A stretch of 63,968 nt of DNA, counting the filler, from Vicugna vicugna (Eukaryota): the NCBI GenBank assembly GCA_013265495.1. It is 78 parts of 75 records of this genome, joined end to end, with 100 filler letters (N's around TTAATTAATTAA, not from the genome) between each part and the next. Parts side by side here need not be neighbours in the genome. Positions count along the whole stretch, not along the records: positions 40,855 to 41,801 come from MU058245.1; 77 more parts are not named here. One strand, written 5' to 3'. Below the pieces are notes generated by a model. It worked only from the letters and a program-made list of their open reading frames with translations, had not been told where the DNA came from and did no database searches. Both the position numbers and the translations under genes were made by a program. Below, one piece after another: positions 11,628 through 58,606 of this stretch. Each line of letters opens with the position of its first letter. The stretch's first letter is position 1.

Positions 11628-12275
11628 CATACATGTAGCATATACGGAACCCGGAAAGCCATGTTGTCGTAAAACATTTAAATTACATATCTGTTAGGTG
11701 GAAATCATTCCAGAAATATTTTTCTGTGAAAAATGCACGAATTCGAACCTGCTGTTAGGGAAAGCTTCTGAAAATGTGTACACGTGTCTAGATGAATACA
11801 TTCCATTTTTAGAAGAGGAAAGATTAGTTATCAAAATGCTCTCAACTCAGGAATGCATGTTTGTCAAATCCGTCATGTATGTAGCATGTACGGAACACGG
11901 AATATCATGTAGATGGAATCTATTCAAATTAAATATCTTAGGGTAGAATTCGCTCCAAGAGTGTTTTTCTGGGATCAAAGTGTGATTCTTGAAACTGGTG
12001 ATAGGCAGAAGCTACGAAGTCAAAATAAATATTTCATAGTGCATAGGTAACTTGTTTGGTGGTTGAAACATCAGTCATGCGGATGTTCACAACTCAGAAA
12101 TACAAGTTTGAGGAATCCATGATGCATGAAACATGTTCGTAATACGGAATGTCATGGTTATGTAAACAATGTAAATTACATGTGTATTTGTGAGAATTCA
12201 CTCAAAGAGTGTTTTCAGGTGCCAGAAATTCGATTTTAGAACCTGGTGATAGAAAAATCTAAGAAGTCAGAGTAA
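11628..12275 (-). repeat. Satellite family B
   Basis: All three monomer types in canonical order, reverse complement. Confidence 0.94.
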
Positions 12276-21860: not shown

Positions 21861-22096
21861 TTGTCTGCACTTTAAAATAAATATTGCAATACACAAAATA
21901 TCTCTTAAACACCCTCATGGGATCTAGTATCTGTATAGACAGTTGAAAACATATGCTATTTCAATAAGAATAAATGTTGTTGGGACATACATTTCCNNNN
22001 NNNNNNNNNNNNNNNNNNNNNNNNNNNNNNNNNNNNNNNNTTAATTAATTAANNNNNNNNNNNNNNNNNNNNNNNNNNNNNNNNNNNNNNNNNNNN

Positions 22097-22584: not shown

Positions 22585-22684
22585 NNNNNNNNNNNNNNNN
22601 NNNNNNNNNNNNNNNNNNNNNNNNNNNNTTAATTAATTAANNNNNNNNNNNNNNNNNNNNNNNNNNNNNNNNNNNNNNNNNNNN

Positions 22685-23060
22685 CCAAAAGAAGATATAC
22701 AAATGGCCAACAAGCATATGAAAGAAGCTTAATATCAGGGAAGCGCAATCCAAAACCACAAGGATATGCCACTTCAGAAACATGAGGACGACTATCATCA
22801 AGAAGACAGACGATGACAGGTGTTGGCTATAATGTCGAGATAAATTGGAACCCTCGTAGTCTGCTAGTGGAAATATGTAAAACGGTGCAGCCACTTTGGA
22901 AGCAGTCTGGAGTTTCTAAAAAGGCCAACCATTGAGTTTCCTTATAACCCAGCCATGACAATCTAAGGTATGCAGCTGTGAGAAATAAAACCTAGATCCC
23001 CAAAAAACTGGTTTACAAATGTTCACAGCAAAATTATTCCTAATAGAAAAATACAAATTG
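22685..23060 (+). mobile_element. Older L1 ORF2 3' fragment
   Basis: CCAAAAGAAGATATACAAATGGCCAACAAGCATATGAAA..AAAACCACAA..TGGAACCCTCGT..GGTGCAGCCACTTTGGAA. Confidence 0.85.
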
Positions 23061-23089
23061 TGTGGACACCAGTTCAGGTATCCTGTCTC

Positions 23090-23277
23090 CATCCTGAGTC
23101 GCAGCCCCGCCCCCAGACCACAGGAGCCAATCCGCGCGCTCGCTGCCAGGACAGGCCCCACCCCAGAGCCCTCCACGGCCTCGCCCCTCCTTCCGCCTAC
23201 CGGCTCGCCAGTTGGCAGTAGGCAGTTGGTGTGAGCGGCCGTAGTTTCAGAAGCTCCGCGGCTCCTCCGAGGCGGCA
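23090..23277. promoter_or_regulatory. CpG-island-like, promoter-like fragment
   Basis: Abrupt GC/CpG-rich segment with GC box CCCCGCCCCC (23105-23114), CCAAT (23127-23131) and CGCGCG; cut off by the scaffold end. Confidence 0.5.
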
Positions 23278-23429
23278 NNNNNNNNNNNNNNNNNNNNNNN
23301 NNNNNNNNNNNNNNNNNNNNNTTAATTAATTAANNNNNNNNNNNNNNNNNNNNNNNNNNNNNNNNNNNNNNNNNNNNCTTTTCCAACTGCACAGCATTCA
23401 TTCATCCACATGAACCAGAAAGTGTGGAC

Positions 23430-23849
23430 CCCATCCCCTCTCCATCAACATTAGTGTCACTTTAATTCCGACTGTTTCAACCAATGCTGTGATGAACACC
23501 CTTGAAAAGACATCTTTGAGTTGGTGTTTAATGGTTTTAGTGGGATGAACTGTACGGATCAGAACTTCTGGGGAAGAGATGCATCTGTGGCCCTTTGATG
23601 CGTCCTGCACACTGTTCTCCTGAAGAGGAGCGTCCGTTCACTCTTCCCTCCAGGGGATCTGCTGGAGCCTCTGCCTGCTTACATTGTCACCAGGGCTGGT
23701 TGTCACCTGACTAACGACCCGCCAGTGTGATGGTGAATGACCTGTGCTGTCTCTGCAGTGTTTCCCTCTGCCTGTGTTCTCACCTGAGAGGTCAAGCATT
23801 TCTAACACACTGGCCACCTGCATTGCCTCTCATTGGAACTGCCCATGTC
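23430..23849 (-). mobile_element. Ancient L1 (L1ME-like) 3' ORF2 fragment
   Basis: AATGCTGTGATGAACACCCTTG..CATCTTTG..GAGGTCAAGCATTT..TGGCCACCTGCATTGCCTCT..AACTGCCCATGTC follows the antisense L1 motif order. Confidence 0.55.
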
Positions 23850-24498
23850 NNNNNNNNNNNNNNNNNNNNNNNNNNNNNNNNNNNNNNNNNNNNTTAATTA
23901 ATTAANNNNNNNNNNNNNNNNNNNNNNNNNNNNNNNNNNNNNNNNNNNNTAGCTCTGCCGTTATTAGAAATGGCGGTCATGTGGCATAGGCTACTCTAGA
24001 TGGCAGCATTATGCCATTTAGGATATGGTATATGTCGTGGCACTCCTCCCTGTCCTGCAATATTGCTGCCGAGATATCAGCTGAAACCCCTCTGGAGGTT
24101 CTCTTGTGATTATGTTGCTTTCCACCAGGCGCATTTTAAATCACTGGGATNNNNNNNNNNNNNNNNNNNNNNNNNNNNNNNNNNNNNNNNNNNNNNNNNN
24201 NNNNNNNNNNNNNNNNNNNNNNNNNNNNNNNNNNNNNNNNNNNNNNNNNNNNNNNNNNNNNNNNNNNNNNNNNNNNNGTCTGAGTTTAGGTAAAATTTCA
24301 GACATTATTTTTTTCTCTTTATCTCTTGTTTTCCATCTGGGACTCTTACGAATCCTAGACTTTCATGTCTTTTCTTACCCCAGGATTCAACAGCAATGNN
24401 NNNNNNNNNNNNNNNNNNNNNNNNNNNNNNNNNNNNNNNNNNTTAATTAATTAANNNNNNNNNNNNNNNNNNNNNNNNNNNNNNNNNNNNNNNNNNNN

Positions 24499-25485
24499 AT
24501 GTAATTTACATTGTTTACATAACCCTGGCATTCCGTAGACCAAAAATGTTTCATGCAACACGGATTCCTCAAACATACATTTCTGAGTTGTGAACATGTG
24601 CATGACTGATGTTTCAACCATAACAAGTTACCTATGCAGTTTGAAATAACTAATTGGTCTTTGTAGATTCTACCTTTCACTAGGTTCAAGAATCACACTT
24701 TTATCTCAGAAAAACTCTCTTGGAGTGAATTCTACCCTAGAGATATTTAATTTGAATTGATTCAATCTACATGATATTCCGTGTTCCGTACATAATTCAT
24801 GCATGACGGATTCGAGAAACTGGCATTCCTGAGTTGAGAGCATGTGGATTACTGACCTTTCATCCACCAAGCAATGCATATATACTCTTTGAAATATTTA
24901 CTCTTACCTCATAGGTTTTTTGTATCTCCAGGTTCTAAAATCGGATATTTGGCACCAGAAACCACTCTTTGTGTGCATTCTAACCAAAACTTTTGTAATT
25001 TAAATTGTTTACATAAGCATGGCGTTCCGTATTCCGAAAATTTTTCATACAACACGGATTCCTCAAACATGCATTTCTGAGTTGTGAACATGCGCATGAC
25101 ACATGTTTCAACCATAACAAGTTACCTATGCACTTTGAAATATTTACTTAGTCTTCGTAGATTCTTCCTATCACTAGGTTCAAAGATCCCAGAAAAAACC
25201 TCTTGGAACGAATTCTACCCTAGAGATATTTAATTTGAATGGATTCCATCAATATTATAATCCGTATTCCGTACATGCTACATGCATAACGGTGTCGACA
25301 AACATGCATTCTTGAGTTGAGAGCATGTGGATTTGTGATCTTTCTTCCTCTATAAAAGGAATATTTTCATCTAGACATGTGTACCAATTTTCACAATCTT
25401 TTCCTAACATCAGTTTCGAACTCGTGCATTTTTCACAGAGAAATACTTCTGGAGCGATTTCCACCAAACAGATATGTAATTTACA
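24499..25485 (+). repeat. Satellite family B, containing a dimeric (494-bp) variant unit
   Basis: Monomer-1 starts at 24525 and 25019. Confidence 0.93.
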
Positions 25486-25585
25486 NNNNNNNNNNNNNNN
25501 NNNNNNNNNNNNNNNNNNNNNNNNNNNNNTTAATTAATTAANNNNNNNNNNNNNNNNNNNNNNNNNNNNNNNNNNNNNNNNNNNN

Positions 25586-26418
25586 TGAGATGAAGCTGGG
25601 AGTACGGAGAAACTAGGGCAGCTAGAATTCCCAAGTCAGAATACAACAGGGGAGAATTCTGCACAGAAGGAAAACACTGGAGAATGCGGAGAGTCCGCCT
25701 TGGGTATGCAGCTGAGAACTCATCTGCACATAACTGTGCAGGGGAAAGATTCAGCCAACGTGATCAGAGGGGGCAATGCCTGGCAATCACAGAGCTGGGA
25801 ATAGGGCCAGTTCCTACCAGCCAGACTGGACAATTTCATCCCTTATAGGGTGTTGGGTAGAATACTCAGATGCATCTTGCCCTAGTAGTGGGGAAAAAAA
25901 AAACACCTTGGAGTGAAAATTGCTCTAGTTCTGCTTAAAAAGTCTTAAAAGCAAGACTTTTTGTAAGTGACTAAACTGCTTTCCACCACACAGCTTTATA
26001 AGGTATACAGGAATACAAAAATATCCAGCACCCAACAAGTTAAAACTCACAATGTCGGACGTGCAATAATAGAAGCTACCAAATACCAAACGTGAAGCAA
26101 GAAGACACAACACATAATGGGAAGACATCAGTCTGTCTGAACTAATCCAGAGATGACAGAGATGTTAGAATTAGCAGACAAGAATATCAAAACAGTATAA
26201 CTGTATTTTTTGTTCAAAAATTGAGATGTGGAATATACTGAAAAGTACTCAAATTGAACTTTTAGAGATAGAAAGTATAATATATAAAATTAAAGATATA
26301 TCTGAAATTTATAGCAAATTTGATATTAATGGAGGGAAAAATAGTAAACTGCTGTCAGGAAGAGAATGAATCAAAAAAAAGTGGCCAAATATATGTGTAT
26401 ATTTTGAGTCCCTGAAAG
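25586..26418 (+). mobile_element. Old eutherian L1 5' region / decayed ORF1 (L1MD/L1ME-like)
   Basis: CCAGCACCCAACAAGTTAAAACTCACAATGTC..CCAGAGATGACAGAGATGTTAGAATTAGCAGACAAG matches recalled L1M 5'-end/ORF1 consensus. Confidence 0.72.
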
Positions 26419-27263
26419 NNNNNNNNNNNNNNNNNNNNNNNNNNNNNNNNNNNNNNNNNNNNTTAATTAATTAANNNNNNNNNNNNNNNNNNNNNNNNNN
26501 NNNNNNNNNNNNNNNNNNGGACTAGGGATGCCACCCACCCCTGTTGTGAGCCCCTGCAGAGACGCAGATGAACAAGTGTGAGGTGGGTGACAGGGAGAGA
26601 GCAGCTTGTCAGTTTGGACCAGGAACTGCCACCTAAAGATCTAGTTCTGTGACGGGCTCAGCTGAAATGTCTGTGCACCCCCACCTCGGCATTCCAGCCC
26701 TTATGGCACTGGAGGATGTATCCACCCATATTCTGGCTGTGGGGTGGGGTCTGCTACAGGCAGGAGACCCCAGCTGCTCCCTCAGCTCCTCGCCCCACTT
26801 TCTCCAGGCATCAGTGGGCTGTCCTGTGCACCTACTTAGTCTCCCGACCATCTCTGAACCTTGGCCCAAGGCTCAGAACCTTCTTCAGAGGGTCACTTCC
26901 AAATGTTTGGAATATCCCCCTGCCCACTTGGCATCTTACGTGCATAAAGCAAAAGAGAGGATAACATTCAAGATACTAAACAAGCTCACAGCACCGTGTA
27001 GTGTTCCAGAATCTGTCCTCTTCACCATCGTCAGTGACTGCTGGGATGAGATCTGCCCCATGGGAGCCTTTCAGACCCCGTACGCCATGGTGGGCCCTGG
27101 GACCCTGAGACGATCACGCCAGGCCCCATGATGACACAAACCACTTGGGGCGGAAGATGGAGGNNNNNNNNNNNNNNNNNNNNNNNNNNNNNNNNNNNNN
27201 NNNNNNNTTAATTAATTAANNNNNNNNNNNNNNNNNNNNNNNNNNNNNNNNNNNNNNNNNNNN

Positions 27264-27715
27264 TAGAATATAGAATACAAAATTCTGAATATCAAATTTA
27301 GAATACAGAATGTAGAACACACAAAATTGAATGTACAATACGGAACGCAGAATATTGAATACAGAATATAGAAAGTAGAATTCAGAATATAGAATATAGA
27401 ATTCGGAATGCAGAATATAGAATATAGAATATAGAATGATGAACAGAGAATGTAGAATACAGAGTAGAGNNNNNNNNNNNNNNNNNNNNNNNNNNNNNNN
27501 NNNNNNNNNNNNNNNNNNNNNNNNNNNNNNNNNNNNNNNNNNNNNNNNNNNNNNNNNNNNNNNNNNNNNNNNNNNNNNNNNNNNNNNNNNNNNNNNNNNN
27601 TAAGGAATGCAAAAAATACAAAATATAGAATGTAGAACACAGAATGTATAACATGGAAAACAGAATACGAAACCGAGAATATAGGACATGGAATACAGAA
27701 CACAGAGTTTAGAAT
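27264..27715 (+). repeat. Satellite family E, degenerate (AGAATAT)n
   Basis: 7-bp periodicity with variants AGAATAT, AGAATAC, AGAACAC, AGAATTT. Confidence 0.96.
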
Positions 27716-27815
27716 NNNNNNNNNNNNNNNNNNNNNNNNNNNNNNNNNNNNNNNNNNNNTTAATTAATTAANNNNNNNNNNNNNNNNNNNNNNNNNNNNN
27801 NNNNNNNNNNNNNNN

Positions 27816-28323
27816 GAACAGGGAACACCTGTGACTGAAGAGAGCTTCGTGAAGTTGTCTTTCGAGCTCCCCCACGAACTGACTATGGTTCCCGAATCCT
27901 GAGCATGGGGAGGTTCCACCAACGGTCGGCAGCGCGTGGGTTCTAACGGAATGCCTAAGCGCGTCTCCCCTGAGTGTTTTCGTAATGTCTCTCTGCCAGG
28001 GAATGCTAGGGGTGGTTGCAGGTTATCCCAGTGACAGAGGCTGCCTCCCCAAGTTCAGGGAAGGTATATTTCGGACTTCCCAGAACAGGGAACANNNNNN
28101 NNNNNNNNNNNNNNNNNNNNNNNNNNNNNNNNNNNNNNNNNNNNNNNNNNNNNNNNNNNNNNNNNNNNNNNNNNNNNNNNNNNNNNNNNNNNNNNNNNNN
28201 NNNNNNNNNNNNNNTCCCCTGAGGTTTTTCTTAATATCTCTGTGCCAGGGAATGCTAGGGTGTTTTGCAGGATATCATAGTGACATAGGCTGCCTCCCCA
28301 AAGTCAGGGAATGTATTTCTCGG
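27816..28323 (-). repeat. Satellite family A (internal gap)
   Basis: Reverse complement of the 267-bp monomer. Confidence 0.95.
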
Positions 28324-28423
28324 NNNNNNNNNNNNNNNNNNNNNNNNNNNNNNNNNNNNNNNNNNNNTTAATTAATTAANNNNNNNNNNNNNNNNNNNNN
28401 NNNNNNNNNNNNNNNNNNNNNNN

Positions 28424-28882
28424 GGAACCCTGAGCGTGGGGAGGTTCCACCAACGGTCGGCAGCGATTTTGTTCCAACGGAATGACTGTGCTGGTATCCC
28501 CTGAGTTTTTTCCTAATATCTCTGTGCCAGGGAATGCTAGGGGTGTTTGCAGGAAATCCCTGTGACAGAGGCTGCCTCCCCAAGGTCAGGGAAGGTATTT
28601 CTCAGACTTCCCCAGTGACTGAAGAGAGCGGTGTGGAGTTGTTTATCGAGCTTCCCAACGCACTGACTATGCTTCCGGAACTCTGAGTGTGGGGTGGTTC
28701 CACCAACGGTCGGCAGCGCGTGTGTTCCCATGGAATGCCTGAGCTGGTCTCCCCTGAGGGTTTTCCTAATATCTCTGTGCCAGGAAATGCTAGGGTGGTT
28801 TGCAGGATATCCCAGTGACAGAAGCTGCCTCCCCCACGTCAGGGAAGCTATTTCTTGGACTTCCCCGGACAGGGAACACCTG
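28424..28882 (-). repeat. Satellite family A
   Basis: GGTTCCACCAACGGTCGGCAGCG occurs twice; one monomer has a small internal deletion. Confidence 0.94.
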
Positions 28883-28982
28883 NNNNNNNNNNNNNNNNNN
28901 NNNNNNNNNNNNNNNNNNNNNNNNNNTTAATTAATTAANNNNNNNNNNNNNNNNNNNNNNNNNNNNNNNNNNNNNNNNNNNN

Positions 28983-29885
28983 ATGTTTCATGCAACACAG
29001 ATTATTCAAAGATGCATTTCTGAGTTGCAAACATGCGCATGAATGATGTTTCCAACATAAAAGTGTACCTATGCACTTTGAAATATTTACTTTGACTTCA
29101 TAGTTTCTCCCTGTCACCAGTTTCAAGAATCACACTTTGATCCAAGTAAAACACTCTTTGATCGAATTCTACCCTAGAGATATATAATTTGAATAGATTA
29201 CATACAAGTTATTCCGTGTTATGTACATGCTACATGCATGACGGATTTGACAAACATGCATTCATGAGTCGAGAGCATGTGGATTACTGATCTTTCATCC
29301 TCTATAAAAGGAAAATCTTTATCTAGACACGTGTACACATTTTCAGAAGATTCCCCTAACACCAGTTTCGAGTTTGTGCATTTTTCACAGAAAAATAATT
29401 CTGGAGCGATTTCCACCTAATAGATATGTAATTTACATGGAATTCCATCAACATGGCATTCCGGGTTCCGTATATTTTACATGCATGACGGATTCGACAA
29501 ACTTGCATTCCTGTGTTGAGAGCATGTGGATTACTGATCTTTCATCCTCTATAAAAGGAATATTTCATCAAGAGCCGCGGACTCATTTTCACAAGCTTTT
29601 CCTAACACCAGTTGCGAATTCATGCATTTCTCATCACTGAAAAATACTTCGGGAGCGATTTCAACCTAACAGATATGTATTTTACATAAAATCGATCAAC
29701 ATGTCATCCCGGGTTCTGTACATGCTATATGCATGATGGATTCGACAAACATGCGTTTCCCAGTTGTGAACATGTGGATTACTGACCTTTCATCTACCAA
29801 ACAAGGCATTTATACACTTAGAAATATTTACTCTGACTTGATAGGTTTTTTCTCTCACCAGATTCCACAATCGGACATTTTGCTC
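28983..29885 (+). repeat. Satellite family B, containing an extra hybrid monomer (tetrameric variant)
   Basis: The monomer-2 tail CTTTCATCCTCTATAAAAGGAA occurs twice, ~248 bp apart. Confidence 0.93.
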
Positions 29886-29985
29886 NNNNNNNNNNNNNNN
29901 NNNNNNNNNNNNNNNNNNNNNNNNNNNNNTTAATTAATTAANNNNNNNNNNNNNNNNNNNNNNNNNNNNNNNNNNNNNNNNNNNN

Positions 29986-30528
29986 TAACTGGTGATAGGA
30001 AGAAGCTACAAAGTAAAAGTAAATATTTCATGGTGCATAGGTAACTTCTTTGGTAGTTGATACATCAGTCATGCGCATGTTCACAACTCAGAAATTCATG
30101 TTTGAGGAATCCATGATGCATGGACATGTTCGTAATACGGAATACCATGTTTAAGTAAGCAATGCAAATTACATGTGTATTGGTGAGAATTCACTCAAAG
30201 AGCATTTTCTGGTGCCAAATATCCGATTTTAGAACCTGGTGATAGGAAAATCTATGAAGTCAGAGTAAATATGTCTAAGTTTATATTCGCCTTGTTCGGA
30301 GGATGAAAGGACAGTAATCCACATGCTCACAATTCAGAAACGCATGTTTGCCAAATCCGTCATATATGTAGCATGTACCGAACCTGGAATGCCATGTTGT
30401 TGGAATTCATGTAAATTACACATCTGTTAGGTGGAAATCGCTCCAGAAATATTTTTCTGTGAGAAAAGCATGGATACATTTTCCTGTGAGAAAAGCAGGG
30501 ATTCGAAACTGGTTTTAGGGAAAGCTTG
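29986..30528 (-). repeat. Satellite family B
   Basis: Reverse-complement B motifs. Confidence 0.94.
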
Positions 30529-30628
30529 NNNNNNNNNNNNNNNNNNNNNNNNNNNNNNNNNNNNNNNNNNNNTTAATTAATTAANNNNNNNNNNNNNNNN
30601 NNNNNNNNNNNNNNNNNNNNNNNNNNNN

Positions 30629-31281
30629 CTACATGCATGACGGATTCGACAAACATGAGCTTCTGATTTGTGACCATGTGGTTTAGTGAACTTTCATCCA
30701 ACAGAACAAGGCATATATGCACTTAGAAATATTTATTGTGACTTCATATGTTTTTTTCTTTCACCAGATTCTAAAATCGGACATTTGGCCCCAGAAAAAA
30801 ATCTTTGAGCGAATTCTCACCAATACACACGTAATTTACATTGTTTACATAACCATGGCATTCCGTATTCCGAACATGTTTCATGCACCATGGAATCCTT
30901 AAACATGAATTTCTGAGTTGTAAACATGTGCATGACTGATGTTTCTACCACCAAACAATTTACCTATGCACTCTGAAATATTTACTTTGACTTCGTAGCT
31001 TCTTCCTATCACCAGTTTCAAGAATCACTCTTTGATCCCAGAAAAACCCTCTTGGAATGTAATTTGACTAGATTCCATCAACATGAAATTCCGTGTTCCG
31101 TACAAGCTTCATGCATGACGGATTTGACAAACATGCATTCCTGAGTTTATAACATGTGGATTACTGATCTTTCATCCTCTATAAAAGGAATAATTTCATC
31201 TAGACACGTGTACTCATTTTCACAAACTTTCCATAACACCAGTTTTGAATTCGTTCATTTTTCACAGAAAAATACTTCTGG
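30629..31281 (+). repeat. Satellite family B
   Basis: Monomers 3-1-2 in order. Confidence 0.94.
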
Positions 31282-31381
31282 NNNNNNNNNNNNNNNNNNN
31301 NNNNNNNNNNNNNNNNNNNNNNNNNTTAATTAATTAANNNNNNNNNNNNNNNNNNNNNNNNNNNNNNNNNNNNNNNNNNNN

Positions 31382-31798
31382 ATGTTCACAACTCAGAAAT
31401 CAAGTTTGAGGAATCCGTGATGCAGGAAACATGTTTGTAATACGGAATGCTATGGTTATGTAAACAAGGTAAATTACATGTGTATTTGTGAGAATTCATT
31501 CAAAGACTGTTTTCTGGAGCCAGATGTCTGATTTTAGAACCTGGTGATAGAAAAATCTATGAAGTCAGAGTAAATAATTCTAAGTGTATATTCGCATTGT
31601 TTGGTGGATGAAAGGTCAGTAATCCACATGCTCACAAGTCAGAACTGCATGATTCCCGAATCCGTCATGCATGTATCATGTACGGAACCCAGAATCATGT
31701 ACGGAGAATTCCATGTTGATGGAATTCATGTATATTACATACATATGAGGTGAAAATCGCTCCAGAAATATTTTTTGTGAAAAATGCACGAATTCGAA
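31382..31798 (-). repeat. Satellite family B
   Basis: Reverse-complement B motifs. Confidence 0.93.
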
Positions 31799-33154
31799 NN
31801 NNNNNNNNNNNNNNNNNNNNNNNNNNNNNNNNNNNNNNNNNNTTAATTAATTAANNNNNNNNNNNNNNNNNNNNNNNNNNNNNNNNNNNNNNNNNNNNTT
31901 TCGGCCAGCTTCTCTTCGTGTCTCCCATAAATTCGACTTCGCCTGGGCTGGGGAAGTGTGAAAGTACCTCGGAGCCTCACCAGTAAGCTGATGACAGGCA
32001 GATCTTCCACTGTCTGCCCTTTCAGGTTCTGGAAACTGACCTGTGAACTCAGGTCTTTGGGCAGCAGCAGTATCTCGAACTTACAAAGCTTCCCGGAACA
32101 AACACCTAAGCCAAGCTCCACAGAGGNNNNNNNNNNNNNNNNNNNNNNNNNNNNNNNNNNNNNNNNNNNNNNNNNNNNNNNNNNNNNNNNNNNNNNNNNN
32201 NNNNNNNNNNNNNNNNNNNNNNNNNNNNNNNNNNNNNNNNNNNNNNNNNNNNNNNNNNNNNNNNNNNNNNNNNNNNNNNNNNNNNNNNNNNNNNNNNNNN
32301 NNNNNNNNNNNNNNNNNNNNNNNNNNNNNNNNNNNNNNNNNNNNNNNNNNNNNNNNNNNNNNNNNNNNNNNNNNNNNNNNNNNNNNNNNNNNNNNATCTG
32401 TATGCCAGAACCACTGGAGGGAAGTGGGTCCCTTTTCAGTTGATGGTTTGACACGTCTTTAAACTTTCTAACAGTTCACAGTACAAAGAGACCCACTTAA
32501 GGAGACTTATGTTCCTATAATATGCATACAGCCGGAAAACATATGCGTCGCCTGATTTCTGCTGAAACACCCGCACTCTCAGGACATGGATCCATTTGTT
32601 TCATGGGGGCTGAAATTCCAAGAAATGAAACCAACCCCAATGTGCACTTTACTGTCTGTCTCNNNNNNNNNNNNNNNNNNNNNNNNNNNNNNNNNNNNNN
32701 NNNNNNNNNNNNNNNNNNNNNNNNNNNNNNNNNNNNNNNNNNNNNNNNNNNNNNNNNNNNNNNNNNNNNNNNNNNNNNNNNNNNNNNNNNNNNNNNNNNN
32801 NNNNNNNNNNNNNNNNNNNNNNNNNNNNNNNNNNNNNNNNNNNNGAATCAATATAATATGAATGCACGCCTCTGATTTCCAAATACAAGTGCGCTGAGTA
32901 CATGCAAGCCGCGATACTAATTCGATGGGTGATGAATGACCCTTGACATCACATTGGGTAATTTCTTTTGAATAATCATGGTTCCCTTGCTAAATTTCAG
33001 CCTTCCGTTACCTTTTGGTGCTTGTTGGTTGGTTTGATTCTTTGTTGGTCTGCTNNNNNNNNNNNNNNNNNNNNNNNNNNNNNNNNNNNNNNNNNNNNTT
33101 AATTAATTAANNNNNNNNNNNNNNNNNNNNNNNNNNNNNNNNNNNNNNNNNNNN

Positions 33155-34662
33155 AGTATTGAATGTTGAACACAGAGTATAGAATATAGAATACGGAATG
33201 CTGAATATGGAATTTAGAATATAGAATGTAGAACACCGAATAGAGAATATAGAATACGGAATGCAGAATATAGAATACAAAATTTAGAATGTAGAACACA
33301 GAATAGAGAACATAGAATAGAGTATATGGAACACAAAATATAGAACATGGAATGCAGAACACAGAATTTAGATTATAGAATACAGAAAACTGAATATAGA
33401 ATTTAGAATATAGAANNNNNNNNNNNNNNNNNNNNNNNNNNNNNNNNNNNNNNNNNNNNNNNNNNNNNNNNNNNNNNNNNNNNNNNNNNNNNNNNNNNNN
33501 NNNNNNNNNNNNNNNNNNNNNNNNNNNNNNNNNNNNNNNNNNNNNNNNNNNNNNNNNNNNNNNNNNNNNNNNNNNNNNNNNNNNNNNNNNNNNNNNNNNN
33601 NNNNNNNNNNNNNNNNNNNNNNNNNNNNNNNNNNNNNNNNNNNNNNNNNNNNNNNNNNNNNNNNNNNNNNNNNNNNNNNNNNNNNNNNNNNNNNNNNNNN
33701 NNNNNNNNNNNNNNNNNNNNNNNNNNNNNNNNNNNNNNNNNNNNNNNNNNNNNNNNNNNNNNNNNNNNNNNNNNNNNNNNNNNNNNNNNNNNNNNNNNNN
33801 NNNNNNNNNNNNNNNNNNNNNNNNNNNNNNNNNNNNNNNNNNNNNNNNNNNNNNNNNNNNNNNNNNNNNNNNNNNNNNNNNNNNNNNNNNNNNNNNNNNN
33901 NNNNNNNNNNNNNNNNNNNNNNNNNNNNNNNNNNNNNNNNNNNNNNNNNNNNNNNNNNNNNNNNNNNNNNNNNNNNNNNNNNNNNNNNNNNNNNNNNNNN
34001 NNNNNNNNNNNNNNNNNNNNNNNNNNNNNNNNNNNNNNNNNNNNNNNNNNNNNNNNNNNNNNNNNNNNNNNNNNNNNGAATATAGAATTTAGAATATAGA
34101 ATGTAGAACACAGAACTCAGAAGATAGAGTATAGAATACAGAATATAGAATTTAGAATATAGAATGTAGAACACAGAATATAGAATATAGAATACAGAAT
34201 ATAGAATATAGAATTCAGAATATAGAACACAGAATTTGGAACATAGAATGCAGAACACAGAATTTAGAATATAGAATAACGAATTCTGAATATAGAATTA
34301 AGAATATACAATTTAGAACACAGAATATAGAATATAGAATACAGAATATAGAATATAGAATTCAGAATATAGAACACAGAATTTAGAACATAGAATGCAG
34401 AACACAGAATTTAGAATATAGAATAACGAATTCTGAATATAGAATTAAGAATATACAATTTAGAACACAGAATATAGAATATAGAATACGGAATCCAGAA
34501 TATAGAATACAGAATATATAATGTAGAACACAGAATATAGAATATGGAAAACATAATACAAAACCCAGAATTGAGAATATGGAATGTAGAAAACTGTATT
34601 TAGAATATAGAAAGGAGTATACTGAATATAGAAATTCAATATAGAATGTAGAACACAGAATT
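33155..34662 (+). repeat. Satellite family E, (AGAATAT)n with a 147-bp higher-order duplication (internal gap)
   Basis: 7-bp periodicity; rare word AACGAATTCTG at 34278 and 34425. Confidence 0.96.
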
Positions 34663-40408: not shown

Positions 40409-40754
40409 AGTATGTTTCCTAGTGCCGGTTTGATGTGTCTGCCGTTTTCACTGAAAAAACTAGGTGGAGCTTGTACCTCCCATACATATGTATGGAGTGG
40501 AGTTTGTAAATGAAAAGAAACTTTGTGTTCCCTTCAAGCTAATTGAGGGGCGGCTTTCACACTCACTTATCTCTCAGATCTGAGCATGTGTTGAGACGTT
40601 CGTTCATCCAGCACAAAGGCAACGGTTTGCAGGAGAAACCCTTACTCTGGTGTCTCAGTCTGTTTCCTAGTGCCGGTTTGAATTCCCTGCCGTTTTCAAT
40701 TTAAAACCGAGTTGGAGCTTGTACCTCCCCCTATATATGTATGGATTGGAGTTT
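40409..40754 (-). repeat. Satellite family C
   Basis: TGTTTCCTAGTGCCGGTTTGA occurs twice, ~249 bp apart. Confidence 0.94.
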
Positions 40755-40854
40755 NNNNNNNNNNNNNNNNNNNNNNNNNNNNNNNNNNNNNNNNNNNNTT
40801 AATTAATTAANNNNNNNNNNNNNNNNNNNNNNNNNNNNNNNNNNNNNNNNNNNN

Positions 40855-41801
40855 ATGGCATTCGGTATTACGAACATGATTCATGCATCACGGATTCCTG
40901 AAACTTGAAATTCTGAGTTGTGCACATGTGCCTGACTGAAGTTTCAAACACCCAACAAGTTACCTATGCACTTTGATATATTTATTTTGACTTCGTAGTT
41001 TCTGCGTATAACCAGTTTCAAGAATCACACTTTGATCCCCAAAAAACACTCTTGGAGCAAATTTTACCCTAGAGATATGTAATTTGAATAGATTCCATCT
41101 ACATGATATTCCGTTTTCGTTAAATGCTACATAAATGACTGATTTGAGAAACATGCATTCCTGAGTTGAGAGCATGTGGAGTACTAATCTTTCATCCTCT
41201 ATAAAAGGAATATTTTCATCTAGACACGTGTACACGTTTTCACAAGCTTTCCATAACTCCAAGTTCGAATTCATGCATTTTTCACATAAAAATTGTTCTC
41301 GAGCGATTTCCACCTAACAGATGTGTAATTTACATGAATTCCAAAAACATGCAATTCCGGGTTCCGTACATGCTACATGTATGACGGATTCGGCAATCAT
41401 ACGTTTCTGGATTGTGAGCATGTGGATTACTTACCTTTCATCCACCAAAAAAGGTGTATATAGACTTAGAAATATTTTCTCGTACTTCATAGATTTTTCT
41501 ATCACCAGGTTCTAAAATCGGACATTTGGCACCAGAAAACACTCTTTGAGCGAATTCTCACAAATACACATGTAATTTACATTGTTTACATAACCATGGN
41601 NNNNNNNNNNNNNNNNNNNNNNNNNNNNNNNNNNNNNNNNNNNNNNNNNNNNNNNNNNNNNNNNNNNNNNNNNNNNNNNNAATTTCTGAGTTGTGAACAT
41701 GCGTCTGACTGAAGTTTCAAACACCAAACAAGTTACAAATGTACTTTGATATATTAATTTTGACTTCATAAATTCTGCCTATCACCAGTTTCAAGAATCA
41801 C
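40855..41801 (+). repeat. Satellite family B, reference full trimer (40855-41595)
   Basis: Related monomer heads at 40855, 41103, 41349 and 41596; period 741 bp. Confidence 0.96.
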
Positions 41802-42298: not shown

Positions 42299-42834
42299 NN
42301 NNNNNNNNNNNNNNNNNNNNNNNNNNNNNNNNNNNNNNNNNNTTAATTAATTAANNNNNNNNNNNNNNNNNNNNNNNNNNNNNNNNNNNNNNNNNNNNAA
42401 ATATTATGAAAGAGAGTGACAAGGCACATGGGTTTCCCATAAAAGAATAGTTGATGCAATAAACTCTCACTATGGTGAACATTTTTAATAAAAGCCAGTT
42501 GAAAATTTTATCACTGGGACAAATGGCACAAATCCGTCTGAAGAAAAAAGATTCAAATATTATAGAAGAAGCGGTTTGAATCAAGTAGAAATTATGATTT
42601 CTGAACTAATTGTTGTAAGAACTTATACTCAGTCTTATCATAATTGCCTGTGGTAGGAAGTGGATCATTATTTATTTATTAAAAAAAATCCACTAGGTGC
42701 TAATTGCCCCATTCTTGATGCGGCAGTGCTGTGGTTAGTTAAGTTGGGACAATTAGGAAATTTAGCTAGGTTTTCCAGACATTGATTTCAGCCACTTTAT
42801 CTTTACAATAATCTCATCTTTGTGTCGGCCTATG

Positions 42835-43597
42835 CTCCATAAATATATATGGGGAGGTACAAGCTCAAACTCGGGTTTACAGTGAAAACGGAAGGCACTT
42901 CAAACCGGCACTAGGAAACAGACTGAGAAACCAGAGTAAGTGTTTCNNNNNNNNNNNNNNNNNNNNNNNNNNNNNNNNNNNNNNNNNNNNNNNNNNNNNN
43001 NNNNNNNNNNNNNNNNNNNNNNNNNNNNNNNNNNNNNNNNNNNNNNNNNNNNNNNNNNNNNNNNNNNNNNNNNNNNNNNNNNNNNNNNNNNNNNNNNNNN
43101 NNNNNNNNNNNNNNNNNNNNNNNNNNNNNNNNNNNNNNNNNNNNNNNNNNNNNNNNNNNNNNNNNNNNNNNNNNNNNNNNNNNNNNNNNNNNNNNNNNNN
43201 NNNNNNNNNNNNNNNNNNNNNNNNNNNNNNNNNNNNNNNNNNNNNNNNNNNNNNNNNNNNNNNNNNNNNNNNNNNNNNNNNNNNNNNNNNNNNNNNNNNN
43301 NNNNNNNNNNNNNNNNNNNNNNNNNNNNNNNNNNNNNNNNNNNNNNNNNNNNNNNNNNNNNNNNNNNNNNNNNNNNNNNNNNNNNNNNNNNNNNNNNNNN
43401 NNNNNNNNNNNNNNNNNNNNNNNNNNNNNNNNNNNNNNNNNNNNNNNNNNNNNNNNNNNNNNNNNNNNNNNNGTGCTGGATGAACGAACGTCTCTCCACA
43501 TGCTCAGTTCTGAGAGATAATTGTGTGTAAATGCCGACCTTCACCTAGCTTAAAGGGAACACAAAGTTAGTTTTCAGCTGCCAACCCAACTTCATAA
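42835..43597 (+). repeat. Satellite family C beginning at a junction with unique sequence (internal gap)
   Basis: CTCCATAAATATATATGGGGAGGTACAAGCTC..CAAACCGGCACTAGGAAACAGACTGAG. Confidence 0.93.
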
Positions 43598-43697: not shown

Positions 43698-44417
43698 TCA
43701 TCCAGCACAAAGGGATCGGGTTGGAGGCCAAACACTTACTCTTGTTTCTCAGTCTGTTTCTTAGTGCCTGTTTGAAGTTCCTGCGGTTTGCACTGTAAAA
43801 CCGAGTTGCAGCTTGTACCTCCCCATATATATGTATGGAGTGGACTTTGCAAGTGACAAGAAACTTTGTGTTCCCTTCAAGCTAGGTGAAGGAACAAGCT
43901 AGGTGAAGGACGGCTTTCACACACAATTATCTCTCAGAACTGAGCATCTGGAGAGACGTTCGTTCATCCAGCACAAAGGGATCCGGTTGGAGGAGAAACA
44001 CTTACTCTGGTTTCTCAGTCTGTTTCCTATTGTCGGTTTGAAGTTCCTGCGATTTGCACTGTAAAACCGAGTTGGAATTTGTACCTCCCCTTATATATGT
44101 ATGGAGTGGACTTTACAAGTGACAAGAAACCTTGTGTTCCATTCAAGCTAGGTGAAGGACGGCTTTCACACACACTAATCTCTCAGAAATGAGCATGTGG
44201 AGAGACGTTCGTTCATCCAGCACAAAGGGATCCGGTTGGAGGAGAAACACTTACTCTGGTTTCTCAGTCTGTTTCCTATTGTCGGTTTGAAGTTCCTGCG
44301 ATTTGCACTGTAAAACCGAGTTGCAACTTGTACCTCCCCATATATATGTATGGAGTGGACTTTACAAGTGACAAGAAACCTTGTGTTCCATTCAAGCTAG
44401 GTGAAGGACGGCTTTCA
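43698..44417 (-). repeat. Satellite family C, ~3 monomers
   Basis: TCATCCAGCACAAAGGG at 43698, 43964 and 44213 (249-bp period; first monomer carries a 17-bp duplication). Confidence 0.96.
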
Positions 44418-46627: not shown

Positions 46628-47113
46628 GTGCCTCTCTATGGGATTGGAGGTTTTTAAAACTACATCCCTAACATTTAAACACCTCCCCCCCATATAAATG
46701 CGTGGTCTCTCTTTCCCCAACACCAGCACACCCAAGAAAAATTGTTCTGGTATACTGGGTGTGGGTAGGCACCTCCAAATGACAGCAGCAACTGGGAACT
46801 TATAATATCATTTGGCTTGCTTTCCCTGAGTGTTTCCATTGGCCAGGCTGTGAGCGAGGTTGGGTGTTGGGCACTAAAGACTAGTAATAGCGAGTGCCTC
46901 TCTATGGGCAGTGGAGGTGTTTAAAATACATCCCCAAACTTGGAACAACTGTGCCCCCCAGAAATGCGTCGACTCTGTTTCCCCAACTCCAGCACACACA
47001 CGAAGACGGGTTGAGGTTTCCTGAGTGTGGGGAGGCACCTACAACTGACAGCAGGGCCTGGGTTCTAATACAATCCATTAACTTGTCTTCACTGATGGCT
47101 AGCCTAGGCGGGA
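46628..47113 (-). repeat. Satellite family D
   Basis: GTGCCTCTCTATGGG at 46628 and 46894 (266 bp apart). Confidence 0.9.
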
Positions 47114-47213
47114 NNNNNNNNNNNNNNNNNNNNNNNNNNNNNNNNNNNNNNNNNNNNTTAATTAATTAANNNNNNNNNNNNNNNNNNNNNNNNNNNNNNN
47201 NNNNNNNNNNNNN

Positions 47214-47645
47214 AATCCAGCACCGAAGATGTGTTCTGGTATTCTGAGTGTGGGGAAGTTCCTCAAACTGACAGCAGCACCTGAATTCATTGAGTATCCC
47301 TTAGCTTCTGTTCCCTGAATATTCTTTCGGCCAGGCCATGAGGGAAAGCTGGGGGTTGTTCTTGGCGGCCACATAGCAGTGAGTGCCGACCTGATCCATT
47401 GAGGAAGTTCTTAGGGGACTTCTCCCTAAAAGGAACACCTTTTCCTCCATTCATCTGGGTGGAGTGGGGCTGCACAACTCTTCCACACCTAAGAAGGTGT
47501 TCTGGAATTCTGAGTGCAGGGAAGATCCTCCAACTGACAGCAGCACCTGGGTTCAAATTGAATCCCTTTGCTTGTCTTCCCTGATGGAAAGTCTAGGAGC
47601 GAGTGCGGGGGACAGTGTGGTTTGGGCTCCAAAACCAAGTATTTG
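47214..47645 (-). repeat. Satellite family D
   Basis: AACTGACAGCAGCACCTG occurs twice; closely matches 56000-56430. Confidence 0.9.
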
Positions 47646-47745
47646 NNNNNNNNNNNNNNNNNNNNNNNNNNNNNNNNNNNNNNNNNNNNTTAATTAATTA
47701 ANNNNNNNNNNNNNNNNNNNNNNNNNNNNNNNNNNNNNNNNNNNN

Positions 47746-48219
47746 ATAAAAGGAAACACCTGAGCACCCATTCATCTGCGTGGAGTGGGGTTTCCAAACT
47801 CCACACCACACAAGGATGGGTTCCAGTATCCTGAGGGTGGGGTAGTTCCTCCAAAGACATCAGCGTCTTGATTTTAATAGAATCCCTTTGCTTGTCTTTC
47901 CCTGATGTTTTGCCTAGGCCAGTGTGTGGTTGAAAGTGGGATTTGGGATCTAAAACTAAGTATTAGCGTGTGCCTCTCCATGGGTAGTGGAGATGTTTAA
48001 ACTACAACCCACAACTTGGGAATTACTGTGACACTGAAAAATGCGTGTGCTACGTTTCCCCACGTCCAGCACACACAGGAAGAAGTGTTCTGGGGTTCTG
48101 AGTGTGGGGAGGTTCCTCCAACAGACAGCAGCACCTGGGTTTTTATAGAATCACTTAGATTGACTTCCCTAAGGGTTTTTCTAGGCCTAGCAGTAAGCGA
48201 TGGTGGGGGATGGGCTCTA
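47746..48219 (-). repeat. Satellite family D
   Basis: 47890-48210 closely matches 55305-55622. Confidence 0.9.
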
Positions 48220-49427: not shown

Positions 49428-50214
49428 ATTTACATGAATTCCAACAACATGGCATTCCAGGTTCCGTTCATGTTACATGCATGATGGATTCAGCAATCAT
49501 GTGATTCTGACTTGTGAGCATGTGTATTACTGACCTTTCTACAACAAAAGAAGTTGTATATAGACTTAGAAACTTCTACTCTGACTTCATAATTTTTTTC
49601 TAACACCAGGCTCTAAAATCGGATATTTTGCACCAGAAATCACTCTTTGAGCAAATTCTCACCTATACACATGTAATTTTCATTGTTTACATAACCATGG
49701 CATTCCGTATTCCGAACATGTTTCATGCATTACGGATTCCTCAAACATGCATTTTTGATTGTGAACAGGCGCATGACTGATGTTTCAACCACCAAACAAA
49801 TTATCTATGCACTTTGAAATATTTATTTTGTCTTCGTAGCTTCTGCCTATCACCAGTTTCAAAATGACACTTTGATCCCAGAAAAACCCTCTTGAAAAAA
49901 CCCTCTTGGAGCGAATTCTACCCTACAGATATGTAATTTGAATACATACCATCTAAATGATATTCCGTGTTCCGTACATGTTACATACATTACGGATTCG
50001 ACAAACATGCATTCCTGAGTTGAGAGCATGTGGATTACTAATCTTTCATCCTCTATAAAGGAATATTTCCATCTAGACACGTGTACACATTTTCACAAGC
50101 TTTCCTTTACACCAGATACGAATTCGCGGTTTTTTCACAGAAAAATTTTTCTGGAGCTATTTCCACCTCACAAATATGTAATTTACATGAATCCCTACAA
50201 CATGGCATTCCGGG
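49428..50214 (+). repeat. Satellite family B, one full trimer
   Basis: ATTTACATGAAT..CAACATGGCATTCC at 49428 and 50181 (753 bp including a 14-bp duplication). Confidence 0.95.
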
Positions 50215-53171: not shown

Positions 53172-54609
53172 ATATAGAATACAGAATACTGAATATACAA
53201 TTAATATATAGAATGTTGAATACAGAATTTAGAATATATAATAAAGAATACTGAATATAGAGTTTAGAATATTGAATGTAGAACACACAATATAGAACGT
53301 AAAATATGGAATGCAGAATATAGAATACAGAATATAGAAAACAGATTATAGAATATGGAAAAAAGAATACAGAAACAGAATTTAGAACATGGAATGCAGT
53401 ACACAGTGTTTAGAATAGAGAATACAGAATAGTGCATATAGAATTTAGAATGTCGAATGCGGAACACAGATTTTAGAATATAAAATACAGAATACTGAAT
53501 ATAGAATTTAGAATATGGAATGCAGAACACATTATTTAGAATATAGAATACAGAATACTGAATATAGAATTTAGAATATAGAATGNNNNNNNNNNNNNNN
53601 NNNNNNNNNNNNNNNNNNNNNNNNNNNNNNNNNNNNNNNNNNNNNNNNNNNNNNNNNNNNNNNNNNNNNNNNNNNNNNNNNNNNNNNNNNNNNNNNNNNN
53701 NNNNNNNNNNNNNNNNNNNNNNNNNNNNNNNNNNNNNNNNNNNNNNNNNNNNNNNNNNNNNNNNNNNNNNNNNNNNNNNNNNNNNNNNNNNNNNNNNNNN
53801 NNNNNNNNNNNNNNNNNNNNNNNNNNNNNNNNNNNNNNNNNNNNNNNNNNNNNNNNNNNNNNNNNNNNNNNNNNNNNNNNNNNNNNNNNNNNNNNNNNNN
53901 NNNNNNNNNNNNNNNNNNNNNNNNNNNNNNNNNNNNNNNNNNNNNNNNNNNNNNNNNNNNNNNNNNNNNNNNNNNNNNNNNNNNNNNNNNNNNNNNNNNN
54001 NNNNNNNNNNNNNNNNNNNNNNNNNNNNNNNNNNNNNNNNNNNNNNNNNNNNNNNNNNNNNNNNNNNNNNNNNNNNNNNNNNNNNNNNNNNNNNNNNNNN
54101 NNNNNNNNNNNNNNNNNNNNNNNNNNNNNNNNNNNNNNNNNNNNNNNNNNNNNNNNNNNNNNNNNNNNNNNNNNNNNNNNNNNNNNNNNNNNNNNNNNNN
54201 NNNNNNNNNNNNNNNNNNNNNNNNNNNNNNNNNNNNNNNNNNNNNNNNNNNNNNNNNNNNNNNNNNNNNNNNNNNNNNNNNNNNNNNNNNNNNNNNNNNN
54301 NNNNNNNNNNNNNNNNNNNNNNNNNNNNNNNNNNNNNNNNNNNNNNNNNNNNNNNNNNNNNNNNNNNNNNNNATTTAGAATATTGAAAACAGAATATAGA
54401 ACCCAGAATTTAGAACATGGAATGCAGAACACAGAATTTGGAATATAAAATGCGGAATACTGAATATAGAATTTAGAATATAGAATGAAGAACACAGAGT
54501 ATAGGATATAGACTATGGAATGCAGAATATAGAATATAGAATGTAGAATAATGAGCACATAATATAAAATAGTGAATGTAGAACCCAGAATTTAGAACAT
54601 GGAATGCAG
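53172..54609 (+). repeat. Satellite family E, (AGAATAT)n (internal gap)
   Basis: 7-bp periodicity. Confidence 0.96.
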
Positions 54610-55304: not shown

Positions 55305-56464
55305 GCTTGTCTTCCCTGATGGTTTGCCTAGGCCAGTGTGTGTTTGAATGTGGGATTTGAGATCTAAAAGTAAGTATTAGCGTGTGCCTCTCCAAGGGTA
55401 GTGGAGATGTTTAAACTACAACCCACAACTTGGGAATTACTGTGACCCCTGTAAAATGCGTGTGCTTTTTCCTCACGTCCAGCACACACAGGAAGAAGTG
55501 TTCTGGGGTTCTGAGTGTGGGGAGTTTCCTCCAACAGACAGCAGAACCTGGGTTTTAATAGAATCCCTTAGCTTGACTTCCCTAAGTGTTTTCCTAGGCC
55601 TAGCAGTAAGCGATGGTGGTGGNNNNNNNNNNNNNNNNNNNNNNNNNNNNNNNNNNNNNNNNNNNNNNNNNNNNNNNNNNNNNNNNNNNNNNNNNNNNNN
55701 NNNNNNNNNNNNNNNNNNNNNNNNNNNNNNNNNNNNNNNNNNNNNNNNNNNNNNNNNNNNNNNNNNNNNNNNNNNNNNNNNNNNNNNNNNNNNNNNNNNN
55801 NNNNNNNNNNNNNNNNNNNNNNNNNNNNNNNNNNNNNNNNNNNNNNNNNNNNNNNNNNNNNNNNNNNNNNNNNNNNNNNNNNNNNNNNNNNNNNNNNNNN
55901 NNNNNNNNNNNNNNNNNNNNNNNNNNNNNNNNCTACAACCCACAACCATGGAATAAATGTGCCCCCTGAAAGATGCTTTGACTGTTTCCCTACATCCAGC
56001 ACACACACGATGATATGTTTTGTTATTCTGAGTGTGGGGAAGTTCCTCAAACTGACAGCACCACCTGGATTCAATTAGTATCCCTTAGATTCTGTTCCCT
56101 GAGTGTTCTTTTAGGCCAGGCCATGAGGGAAAGCTGGGGGTTGGGCTTGGAGGCCAAGTAGCAGTGAGTGCCCCCTGATCCATTGAGGAAATACTTAGAG
56201 GACTTCTCCCTAAAAAAAAAAACCTTTTCCTCCATTCATCTGGGTGCAGTGGTGCTGCACATCTCTCCCACACCTAAGAATGTGTTCTGGAATTCTGAGT
56301 GCAGGGAAGTTCCTCCAACTGACAGCAGCGCCTGGGTTCTAATTGAATCCCTTTGCTAGTCTTCCCTGATGGAATGCCTAGGCGGGAGTGCGGGGGACAG
56401 TTTGGTTTGGGCTCTGAATCCAAGTATTTGCGATGACCTCTCTATGATTTGTGGAGGTGTTTAA
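55305..56464 (-). repeat. Satellite family D (internal gap)
   Basis: GCTTG.CTTCCCT at 55305 and 55571 (266 bp); CTGAGTG at 56028 and 56295 (267 bp). Confidence 0.92.
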
Positions 56465-57054: not shown

Positions 57055-57293
57055 TCTAAATTCTGTGTTCTACGTTCTATATTCTAAATTCTGTATTCAC
57101 TAATCTCTATAATATATTCTAAATACTTTGTTCTGCATTCCATGTTCTAAGTTCTGTGTTTTATATTCTGCTTTCCATATTTTATATTTTGTGTTCTAAA
57201 TTCTATATTCTGTATTCTATATTCTGCATTCCGTATTCTACATTATATATTCTGTGTTCTACATTCTATATTCCAAAGTCTATATTCAGTATT
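57055..57293 (-). repeat. Satellite family E, read as (ATATTCT)n
   Basis: 7-bp periodicity, reverse complement. Confidence 0.95.
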
Positions 57294-57393
57294 NNNNNNN
57301 NNNNNNNNNNNNNNNNNNNNNNNNNNNNNNNNNNNNNTTAATTAATTAANNNNNNNNNNNNNNNNNNNNNNNNNNNNNNNNNNNNNNNNNNNN

Positions 57394-58205
57394 TATTCTG
57401 TGTTATAAAATCTGTGTACTACATTCTATATTATGTATACTGTATTCTATTTTCTTAGTTCTCTGTACTGAATTCCATGTTCTTATTTCTGGGATCTGTA
57501 TTCTGTATTCTGTATACTCTATTCCGTGTTCTACATTATGTATTCTTCATTCTATATTCTGTATCCTGTATTCTACATTCAATATTCTGTGTTCTATATT
57601 CTATATTCTACATTCTGTATTCTGTATTCTGTATTCTATATCCTACATCCTTTGATCTGAATTCCATATTCTANNNNNNNNNNNNNNNNNNNNNNNNNNN
57701 NNNNNNNNNNNNNNNNNNNNNNNNNNNNNNNNNNNNNNNNNNNNNNNNNNNNNNNNNNNNNNNNNNNNNNNNNNNNNNNNNNNNNNNNNNNNNNNNNNNN
57801 NNNNNNNNNNNNNNNNNNNNNNNNNNNNNNNNNNNNNNNNNNNNNNNNNNNNNNNNNNNNNNNNNNNNNNNNNNNNNNNNNNNNNNNNNNNNNNNNNNNN
57901 NNNNNNNNNNNNNNNNNNNNNNNNNNNNNNNNNNNNNNNNNNNNNNNNNNNNNNNNNNNNNNNNNNNNNNNNNNNNNNNNNNNNNNNNNNNNNNNNNNNN
58001 NNNNNNNNNNNNNNNNNNNNNNNNNNNNNNNNNNNNNNNNNNNNNNNNNNNNNNNNNNNNNNNNNNNNNNNNNNNNNNNNNNNNNNNNNNNNNNNNNNNN
58101 NNNNNNNNTATTCTGTGTATTCTATATCCTACATTCTATATTGTGCACCCTGTATTCTAAATTCTGTATTCTAAATTCTGTGTTCTGAATTCCATGTTCT
58201 AAATT
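57394..58205 (-). repeat. Satellite family E, read as (ATATTCT)n (internal gap)
   Basis: 7-bp periodicity, reverse complement. Confidence 0.95.
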
Positions 58206-58305: not shown

Positions 58306-58606
58306 GAATTACATACAAAAAAGAATGTTTAATTCTTCATTTGTTACATTACAGTAAGATTTGATTATAGTTTTTATTTTCATTTCTAAATTATGAAACT
58401 TTTGATACATACAGGTTATTATTATAAAATATATATCCATTACTCTACCACCCAAACAGGAATTACATAAAGAATGTTTAATTCTTCATTTGTTACATTA
58501 CAGTAAGATTTGATTATAGTTTTTATTTTCATTTCTAAATTATGAAACTTTTGATACATACAGGTTATTATTATAAAATATATATCCATTACTCTACCAC
58601 CCAAAC
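58306..58606 (+). repeat. Near-perfect tandem duplication, 149-bp period
   Basis: AGAATGTTTAATTC...ACCACCCAAAC starts at 58322 and 58471. Confidence 0.95.

Follow-up and report, generated by a model that had tools for sequence, protein, structure and literature searches.

Higher-order repeats (HORs) were found in 76 species out of the 171 that had Sanger data (Melters 2013, PMC4053949) and are thus a known and widespread kind of architecture, which makes their occurrence in the camelid satellite described here unsurprising. In primate alpha-satellite HORs, diverged monomer types follow one another in a fixed order, and likeness is far greater between whole units than between adjacent monomers. 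Within one human suprachromosomal family, HORs are 85-88% alike, and chimeric monomers have been described in the alphoid trimers of Chiropotes and Pithecia (PMC9859433, PMC4585704). The 343-bp dimer of New World monkeys is an old multimer with diverged parts that acts as a long monomer, and it is the dominant candidate centromere repeat (Melters 2013, PMC4053949). In the equid pair CENPB-sat/37cen, a proposed ancestral satellite has been displaced pericentromerically by a related, CENP-A-bound repeat (PMC13477059).

Among camelids, the closest described system is the candidate centromere repeat of Lama glama: 248 bp, 45% GC, 2.9% of the genome, with the HOR entry given as 'not found' (PMC4053949). 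That call was made by Melters 2013 on abundance alone (PMC4053949). In Sanger reads, units of at least three monomers were seldom recovered by the pipeline of the same study (PMC4053949), so a trimer could not be fairly weighed there. A 2026 alpaca catalogue of VpaSat01-20 sets centromeric satellites aside and says that no comprehensive study exists; the term 'higher-order' is absent from its text, and its dot-plot supplement may show arrays of the family treated here (PMC13751797). The word 'satellite' is absent from the text of PMC6598621, and PMC7830431, in the part available, concerns camelid FISH of shared repeats only. In the literature searched we found neither a description of a camelid trimer nor CENP-A mapping in camelids; the sequence may already be named in Dfam, Repbase, GenBank or earlier camelid papers. 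Camelid centromeric DNA is essentially undescribed so far.

The window, by which we mean the whole stretch of 63,968 nucleotides from Vicugna vicugna that was analysed (assembly GCA_013265495.1), comprises 78 small scaffolds with 44,341 assembled bases and is not one continuous genomic piece. An all-against-all comparison yields four main repeat groups: family A (267-bp unit, GC-rich, 20 scaffolds, 10.9 kb), family B (26 contigs, 10,538 of the 44,341 assembled bases), family C (248/249-bp unit, 3.0 kb in 5 scaffolds), and a repeat of 7 bp (5 scaffolds). The NOR-associated SAC-SAT presumably has the same size as the unit of family A, 267 bp.

Family B is a very abundant camelid satellite organised as a trimeric HOR of 741 bp. 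The original prediction had placed three monomers at 40855, 41103, and 41349, with the first type returning at 41596, and these starts are as claimed. The features that carry the structure are as follows.

40855..41102, + strand: family B monomer type 1, 248 bp, 90% to the window type-1 majority
41103..41348, + strand: type-2 monomer of family B, 246 bp, 92% alike to the majority sequence of its type
41349..41595, + strand: type-3 monomer of family B, 247 bp, 94% alike to the majority sequence of its type
41596..41801, + strand: next B unit, with four type-1 bases, an 81-N gap, and type-1 positions 54-174
11628..12275, - strand: B scaffold 3-1-2-3, carrying the type-1 copy nearest the majority (96%)
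49428..50214, + strand: B scaffold 2-3-1-2-3, with a type-1 monomer bearing an 8-of-9 CENP-B-box-like site
40755..40854, no strand: artificial scaffold linker, N44-12mer-N44, with no biological adjacency across it
40409..40754, + strand: family C scaffold, adjoining the 40855 unit through the artificial linker only

The lengths of 248, 246, and 247 bp recur in the majority sequences of the three types, which also sum to exactly 741 bp. Aligned pairwise, the monomers at 40855, 41103, and 41349 are colinear and share 149/242, 166/247, and 166/245 positions (62-68%), with scores of 179-247 against shuffle maxima of 100-107. Type-1 positions 54-174 in the returning unit match the first copy at 107 of 121 positions (88%). 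The majority sequences are 73-78% alike, types 2 and 3 being most alike over their first 80 bases (90% and 82%).

Decomposition of the 26 contigs gave 69 monomer segments; the 26 segments of at least 200 bp form the tree and identity set, and the 43 shorter ones were left out of the tree. Across these 26 monomers, identity averages 84-85% within a type (range 75-92) and 63-68% between types (range 59-72), and the tree resolves three groups by type with supports of 100/100, 100/100, and 99/96; within types the trees are mostly star-like. Where at least 25 bp flank a junction on each side, 34 of 36 junctions are 1>2, 2>3, or 3>1 (40 of 43 at any flank length). All eight N-gaps inside B scaffolds match the 741-bp phase within 45 bp; gap lengths presumably derive from read-pair distances, and a random type order would fit each with a chance of about one-third. 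The monomer types occur in exactly 18 of the 78 scaffolds, the number that had been predicted, and the predicted order, mostly 1-2-3, and the far greater likeness of same-type monomers than of neighbours are both borne out. The tree, the order of the junctions, the phase of the gaps, and the raw reads all support the trimer. Under the HOR definition of Melters 2013, B shows distinct monomers clustered by position, a likeness between units that exceeds that between adjacent monomers, and a fixed head-to-tail order. The definition also asks for long unbroken arrays of hundreds to thousands of units; B has a high copy number, as seen in 151-base reads and short contigs.

No contig holds two full units, the returning monomer at 41596-41599 amounting to four bases, so the join from unit to unit rests on raw short reads. 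Tandem Repeats Finder, with a period limit of 500, reported no trimer at 40855; its sole report of a 247-248 period, at 29214-29794, falls where the hybrid duplication sets similar monomers side by side. We found no convincing sub-repeats within the monomer (best self-match, 33-36%; mean, 26-27%), and folding is unremarkable for both a natural B trimer (z -0.79) and a natural C monomer (z -0.83). Family B has 36-38% GC (AT about 62-64%), and each unit carries four EcoRI sites and one MspI site. Camelid satellites were reportedly named after MspI, PstI, and EcoRI by Vidal-Rioja in 1994, and B could be one of these.

The stretch holding the 40855 unit is present, at 46-65% of its words, in 19 of the 22 sequencing runs listed, the 19 spanning two organisms and eight studies; one of the runs carrying it may be the assembly's own source. 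Reads of four runs were placed on it at 80% likeness (151-base reads). From X21 (organism D) no reads were placed, which does not count as absence. In X22, which is raw Hi-C data from organism A and totals 1,938 million letters, 136,402 reads were placed. Among these, 8,335 (4,192 + 4,143) return by 741 bases from 41595 to 40855, and 460 further reads return by 737-739 bases. Four of the joints listed skip about one monomer and together have 48 reads; 186 more joints lie beyond that listing, and skips are counted too low, since the monomers begin alike. Contigs that carry the 741 join number 11 in X1 and 12 in X8 (organism B). Depth in X22 is fairly even across all three monomers and averages 20,600, equal to 0.79% of letters (1.06% by whole reads); the corresponding 17-24 Mb, or 22,000-32,000 units, for an assumed genome of 2.1-3.0 Gb are rough figures, because Hi-C libraries carry a bias and copies are lost at the likeness threshold. 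At roughly 0.8-1% of the letters of one Hi-C run, the prediction of a major satellite stands.

Window copies are about 92% identical to their majority sequence. At the 40 best-supported of the 155 sites listed, the read majority equals the window majority in every case, with a median majority-letter share of 93.6%. Of the placed reads, 65% are less than 90% like the 40855 copy; a simple simulation, run without clipping or indels, gives 30% such reads if the pool lies 1% from its consensus and 62-75% if it lies 3-4% away, and the pooled family thus comes out at about 3-7% from one consensus. The divergence of B is therefore not assembly bias alone. Within scaffolds, same-type neighbours are 87-88% alike in three of four pairs and 83/85 (97.6%) in one; overall, same-type identity is 89.5% within scaffolds and 85.8% between them. 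Active HORs of the alpha-satellite type have neighbouring units more than about 95% alike. B does not show such near-identical neighbours, in assembled pieces that may favour diverged copies, and its pool is not one freshly homogenised array. CpG sites in B diverge by 12-18% compared with 7.6-7.8% elsewhere, about twice as fast, which fits methylated heterochromatin.

Outside CpG, B copies differ by 470 transversions and 233 transitions, and changes of the kinds A>T, C>A, and G>T are common; an excess of about two to one is unusual for neutral mammalian DNA. In X22, 4,061 reads diverge upstream of 41007 and agree with one another at 91%, and depth over 40855-41004 is lower. They mark a type-1 subfamily making up roughly a fifth of the copies and absent from the window, where no copy lies within three mismatches of the variant type-1 read motif. 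Further common read variants occur at 41411 (61%) and 41450 (69%).

The two non-canonical junctions among the 36 belong to two hybrids of types 2 and 3.

24771..25018, + strand: hybrid monomer, type 2 to about position 67, then type 3 from about 84 (diagnostic-site painting)
29453..29700, + strand: hybrid monomer, type 3 to position 43, then type 2 after 45 (five diagnostic sites only)

The first is flanked by two type-1 monomers and makes a two-monomer variant unit, one monomer having been lost; the second is flanked by one monomer each of types 2 and 3 and makes a four-monomer variant unit, one having been gained. That one monomer was lost and one gained, both by way of the region in which types 2 and 3 are similar, points to out-of-register unequal crossover. 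Chimeric monomers of this kind are also described in the Chiropotes and Pithecia alphoid trimers (PMC9859433, PMC4585704). A third apparent exception, 2>1 at 48326, was rejected: only seven bases follow it, and types 1 and 3 share a similar start.

The original prediction likened B to the organisation of primate alpha-satellite HORs. At the level of the suprachromosomal family (85-88%) the comparison is apt, and B shares with those HORs the fixed order of diverged types, the unit-over-neighbour likeness, and the chimeric monomers attributed to unequal crossover; it does not extend to near-identical copies, since neighbouring B units are mostly 87-88% alike, or to an intact CENP-B box. The monomer is 247 and not 171 bp long, and the likeness is one of organisation. 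B also resembles the New World monkey dimer as an old multimer of diverged parts, but it has three parts, not two, and coexists with a monomeric relative.

That relative is family C, to which the 40409..40754 scaffold belongs, as does the following stretch.

43698..44417, + strand: family C satellite, monomeric with a 248/249-bp unit, a homologue of B, adjacent monomers 97% alike

Family C is monomeric in the window, with neighbours 88-97% alike, and judged by sequence it is the published Lama glama candidate centromere repeat: compared by eye, it differs from the printed repeat at about eight of 249 positions (PMC4053949), and a 19-base motif of that repeat occurs eight times in the window and in none of 100 shuffles. 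All three B monomers align as full-length homologues of C, a new link that the original prediction had missed. The B majority monomers match C over their whole length at 140/245, 149/242, and 142/239 positions (57-62%), with z of 13-16 and no equal among 500 shuffles each (natural copies, z 4-10). In profile searches B finds C at E = 1e-13 and C finds B at 6e-8. A midpoint-rooted tree of 30 monomers, from which the two hybrids were left out, has the form ((B1,B3),B2),C, with a support of 96/88 for B1 and B3 and with C outside all three B types. This position implies that the trimer is younger than the split between the two lineages and that no single B monomer gave rise to C. Copies of the two families are equally far from their consensus (93% for C, 92% for B).

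B thus shares with the llama repeat a monomer of about 248 bp and colinear, full-length homology, and differs from it in being a trimer of 36-38% GC, where the llama repeat is monomeric, has 45-46% GC, and is entered as HOR 'not found' (PMC4053949). On these sequence grounds B is best classed as a sister family of the llama repeat, a homologue and not a member. It is also the rarer of the two (0.8-1% against 2.9%), in a comparison that crosses studies, methods (Hi-C and Sanger), and possibly species. Family B has no homology to family A (z ≤2.1) or to a second 267-bp subfamily, A2 (z ≤0.2). Family C shows a weak similarity to family A on the opposite strand (z 3.4, 1 of 500 shuffles; A2, z 3.6). 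A, B, and C may share one ancestor.

The alpaca satellites VpaSat01-20 come from the same clade, and by eye VpaSat09 and VpaSat16 look like other sequences of the window (PMC13751797), in a comparison that covered the first 400 bases of each consensus. Together with the match of family C to the llama repeat, these likenesses support a camelid origin. The alpaca satellites are unlike B in having units of 1.8-8.5 kb and an AT content of 28-56% or 69.5%, compared with about 62-64% in B (PMC13751797). The four primers compared, of 26, are those of the VpaSat06/07 all-centromere probes, and they miss B by 7-8 bases.

An exact CENP-B box, with all nine essential bases of the pattern in PMC5889037, does not occur in the window. 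Seven copies of a site with eight of the nine do, all in type 1 and once per trimer; the site lacks one essential C, and 49 of 1000 unit shuffles also reach eight of nine. One example lies in the type-1 monomer of scaffold 49428..50214.

49901-49915, - strand: 8-of-9 CENP-B-box-like site

Where CENP-B boxes are lacking, short dyads have been suggested to mark centromeres (PMC5889037). Their coverage relative to shuffles is 1.63x in C, 1.24x in B, and 1.04x in A; coming from non-independent copies, these figures no more than lean towards C.

The reading we favour, and consider probable by a modest measure, is that B would be an older pericentromeric layer of the repeat lineage of C, C appearing the better candidate for the CENP-A-bound repeat. 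An ancestral satellite of about 248 bp would have split into the two lineages. In that of B, neighbouring monomers would have drifted 22-27% apart before unequal crossover in register came to act on blocks of three monomers, and such a block was amplified. Occasional crossovers out of register, within the 5' parts where types 2 and 3 resemble each other, would have given rise to the dimer and tetramer variants. Homogenisation would since have slowed, which would leave B copies at their present distance of about 3-8% from a shared consensus, and B would now be a large component of (peri)centromeric heterochromatin, beside or displaced by C. It would then be comparable to the older alpha-satellite layers of human or to the equid pair (PMC13477059), with differences from the latter: CENPB-sat binds CENP-B, where B has an 8-of-9 site only; a displacement of B is something we infer; and C is not derived from one B monomer. 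Against an older layer, the window has more B (10.5 kb) than C (3.0 kb), copies of both stand equally far from consensus, and the pooled divergence may sum many chromosome-specific, internally uniform arrays.

A wider scenario can be entertained tentatively, with more doubt than confidence. A layered camelid centromere family would have descended from the ancestor of about 248 bp, comprising B as a trimeric HOR with one decayed CENP-B-box-like site per unit, C as a dyad-richer, box-less, monomeric repeat, and perhaps also family A with its 267-bp unit. In this scenario B would either be a non-primate mammalian HOR still bound by CENP-A on some chromosomes or record a switch from HOR back to monomeric organisation. 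If true, such a switch would run opposite to the hominoid path, in a clade that has kept its karyotype at 2n=74.

A rather unlikely alternative is that B is the active centromeric HOR on many or some chromosomes, in uniform arrays of its own like human SF1-3, with C flanking or parallel. The between-scaffold identity of 85.8% would match that between human HORs of one family, and the share of the genome (about 0.8-1%), the read-level subfamilies, the single neighbour pair at 97.6%, the box-like site in every trimer, and the tendency of short-read scaffolds to favour diverged copies all sit well with it. However, the other three within-scaffold pairs reach only 87-88%, trees within a type have for the most part a star-like shape, one essential C is missing from the box, which is matched at eight of nine by the shuffles noted above, and it is C that is reported at 2.9% (PMC4053949), with neighbours at 97% in one scaffold.

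We think it improbable that B is non-centromeric constitutive heterochromatin, for example of acrocentric short arms, which shares an ancestor with C and was never a centromere repeat as a trimer. Camelid short arms are heterochromatic, with several satellite families above the centromere (PMC13751797, PMC7830431), and none of the 23 B or C scaffolds contains a B-C junction; yet scaffolds shorter than 1.5 kb are too short to reveal array borders, and B is homologous over its full length to a candidate centromere repeat. That B is no HOR at all, being monomeric with three subfamilies or a dispersed 741-bp repeat whose order is an assembly artefact, is refuted: contigs lack two complete units and the supporting reads are short, not long, but 34 of 36 junctions, eight of eight gaps, and 8,335 reads over the 3-to-1 join at fairly even depth across the monomers go against it.

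The 741-bp unit, at about 1% of the genome, together with its kinship to C, gives probes directly usable for FISH, for mapping CENP-A, and in complete assemblies. It also allows layered centromere turnover to be tested where the karyotype of a lineage is stable.

Several further features of the window concern other repeats. AT-rich non-satellite DNA meets family C near 42830 (window 42399-42946), the only satellite edge seen for B or C in the window. A 149-bp unit doubled at 100% identity in AT-rich DNA at 58320-58606 is probably an assembly artefact. The start of 5167-5646 is like the alpaca VpaSat09-5280 consensus, judged by eye (PMC13751797). Stretch 63054-63756 is one of the 20 family A scaffolds. 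The A2 subfamily (17577-18504, 8522-9216, 46628-48219, and 55305-56464) is 65-70% alike to the main family A and 70-93% alike among its own copies, an internal spread that suggests several monomer types. Alpaca VpaSat16 (1836/1863 bp; PMC13751797) is similar to A2, again by eye; 1863 bp being close to 7 x 267, it is possibly a seven-monomer HOR that has so far gone unrecognised. The 7-bp satellite shows higher periods of 21, 63, and 147 bp at 27264-27715, 33155-34662, 53172-54609, and 57055-58205, the 147-bp period reaching 93% in 34084-34518.
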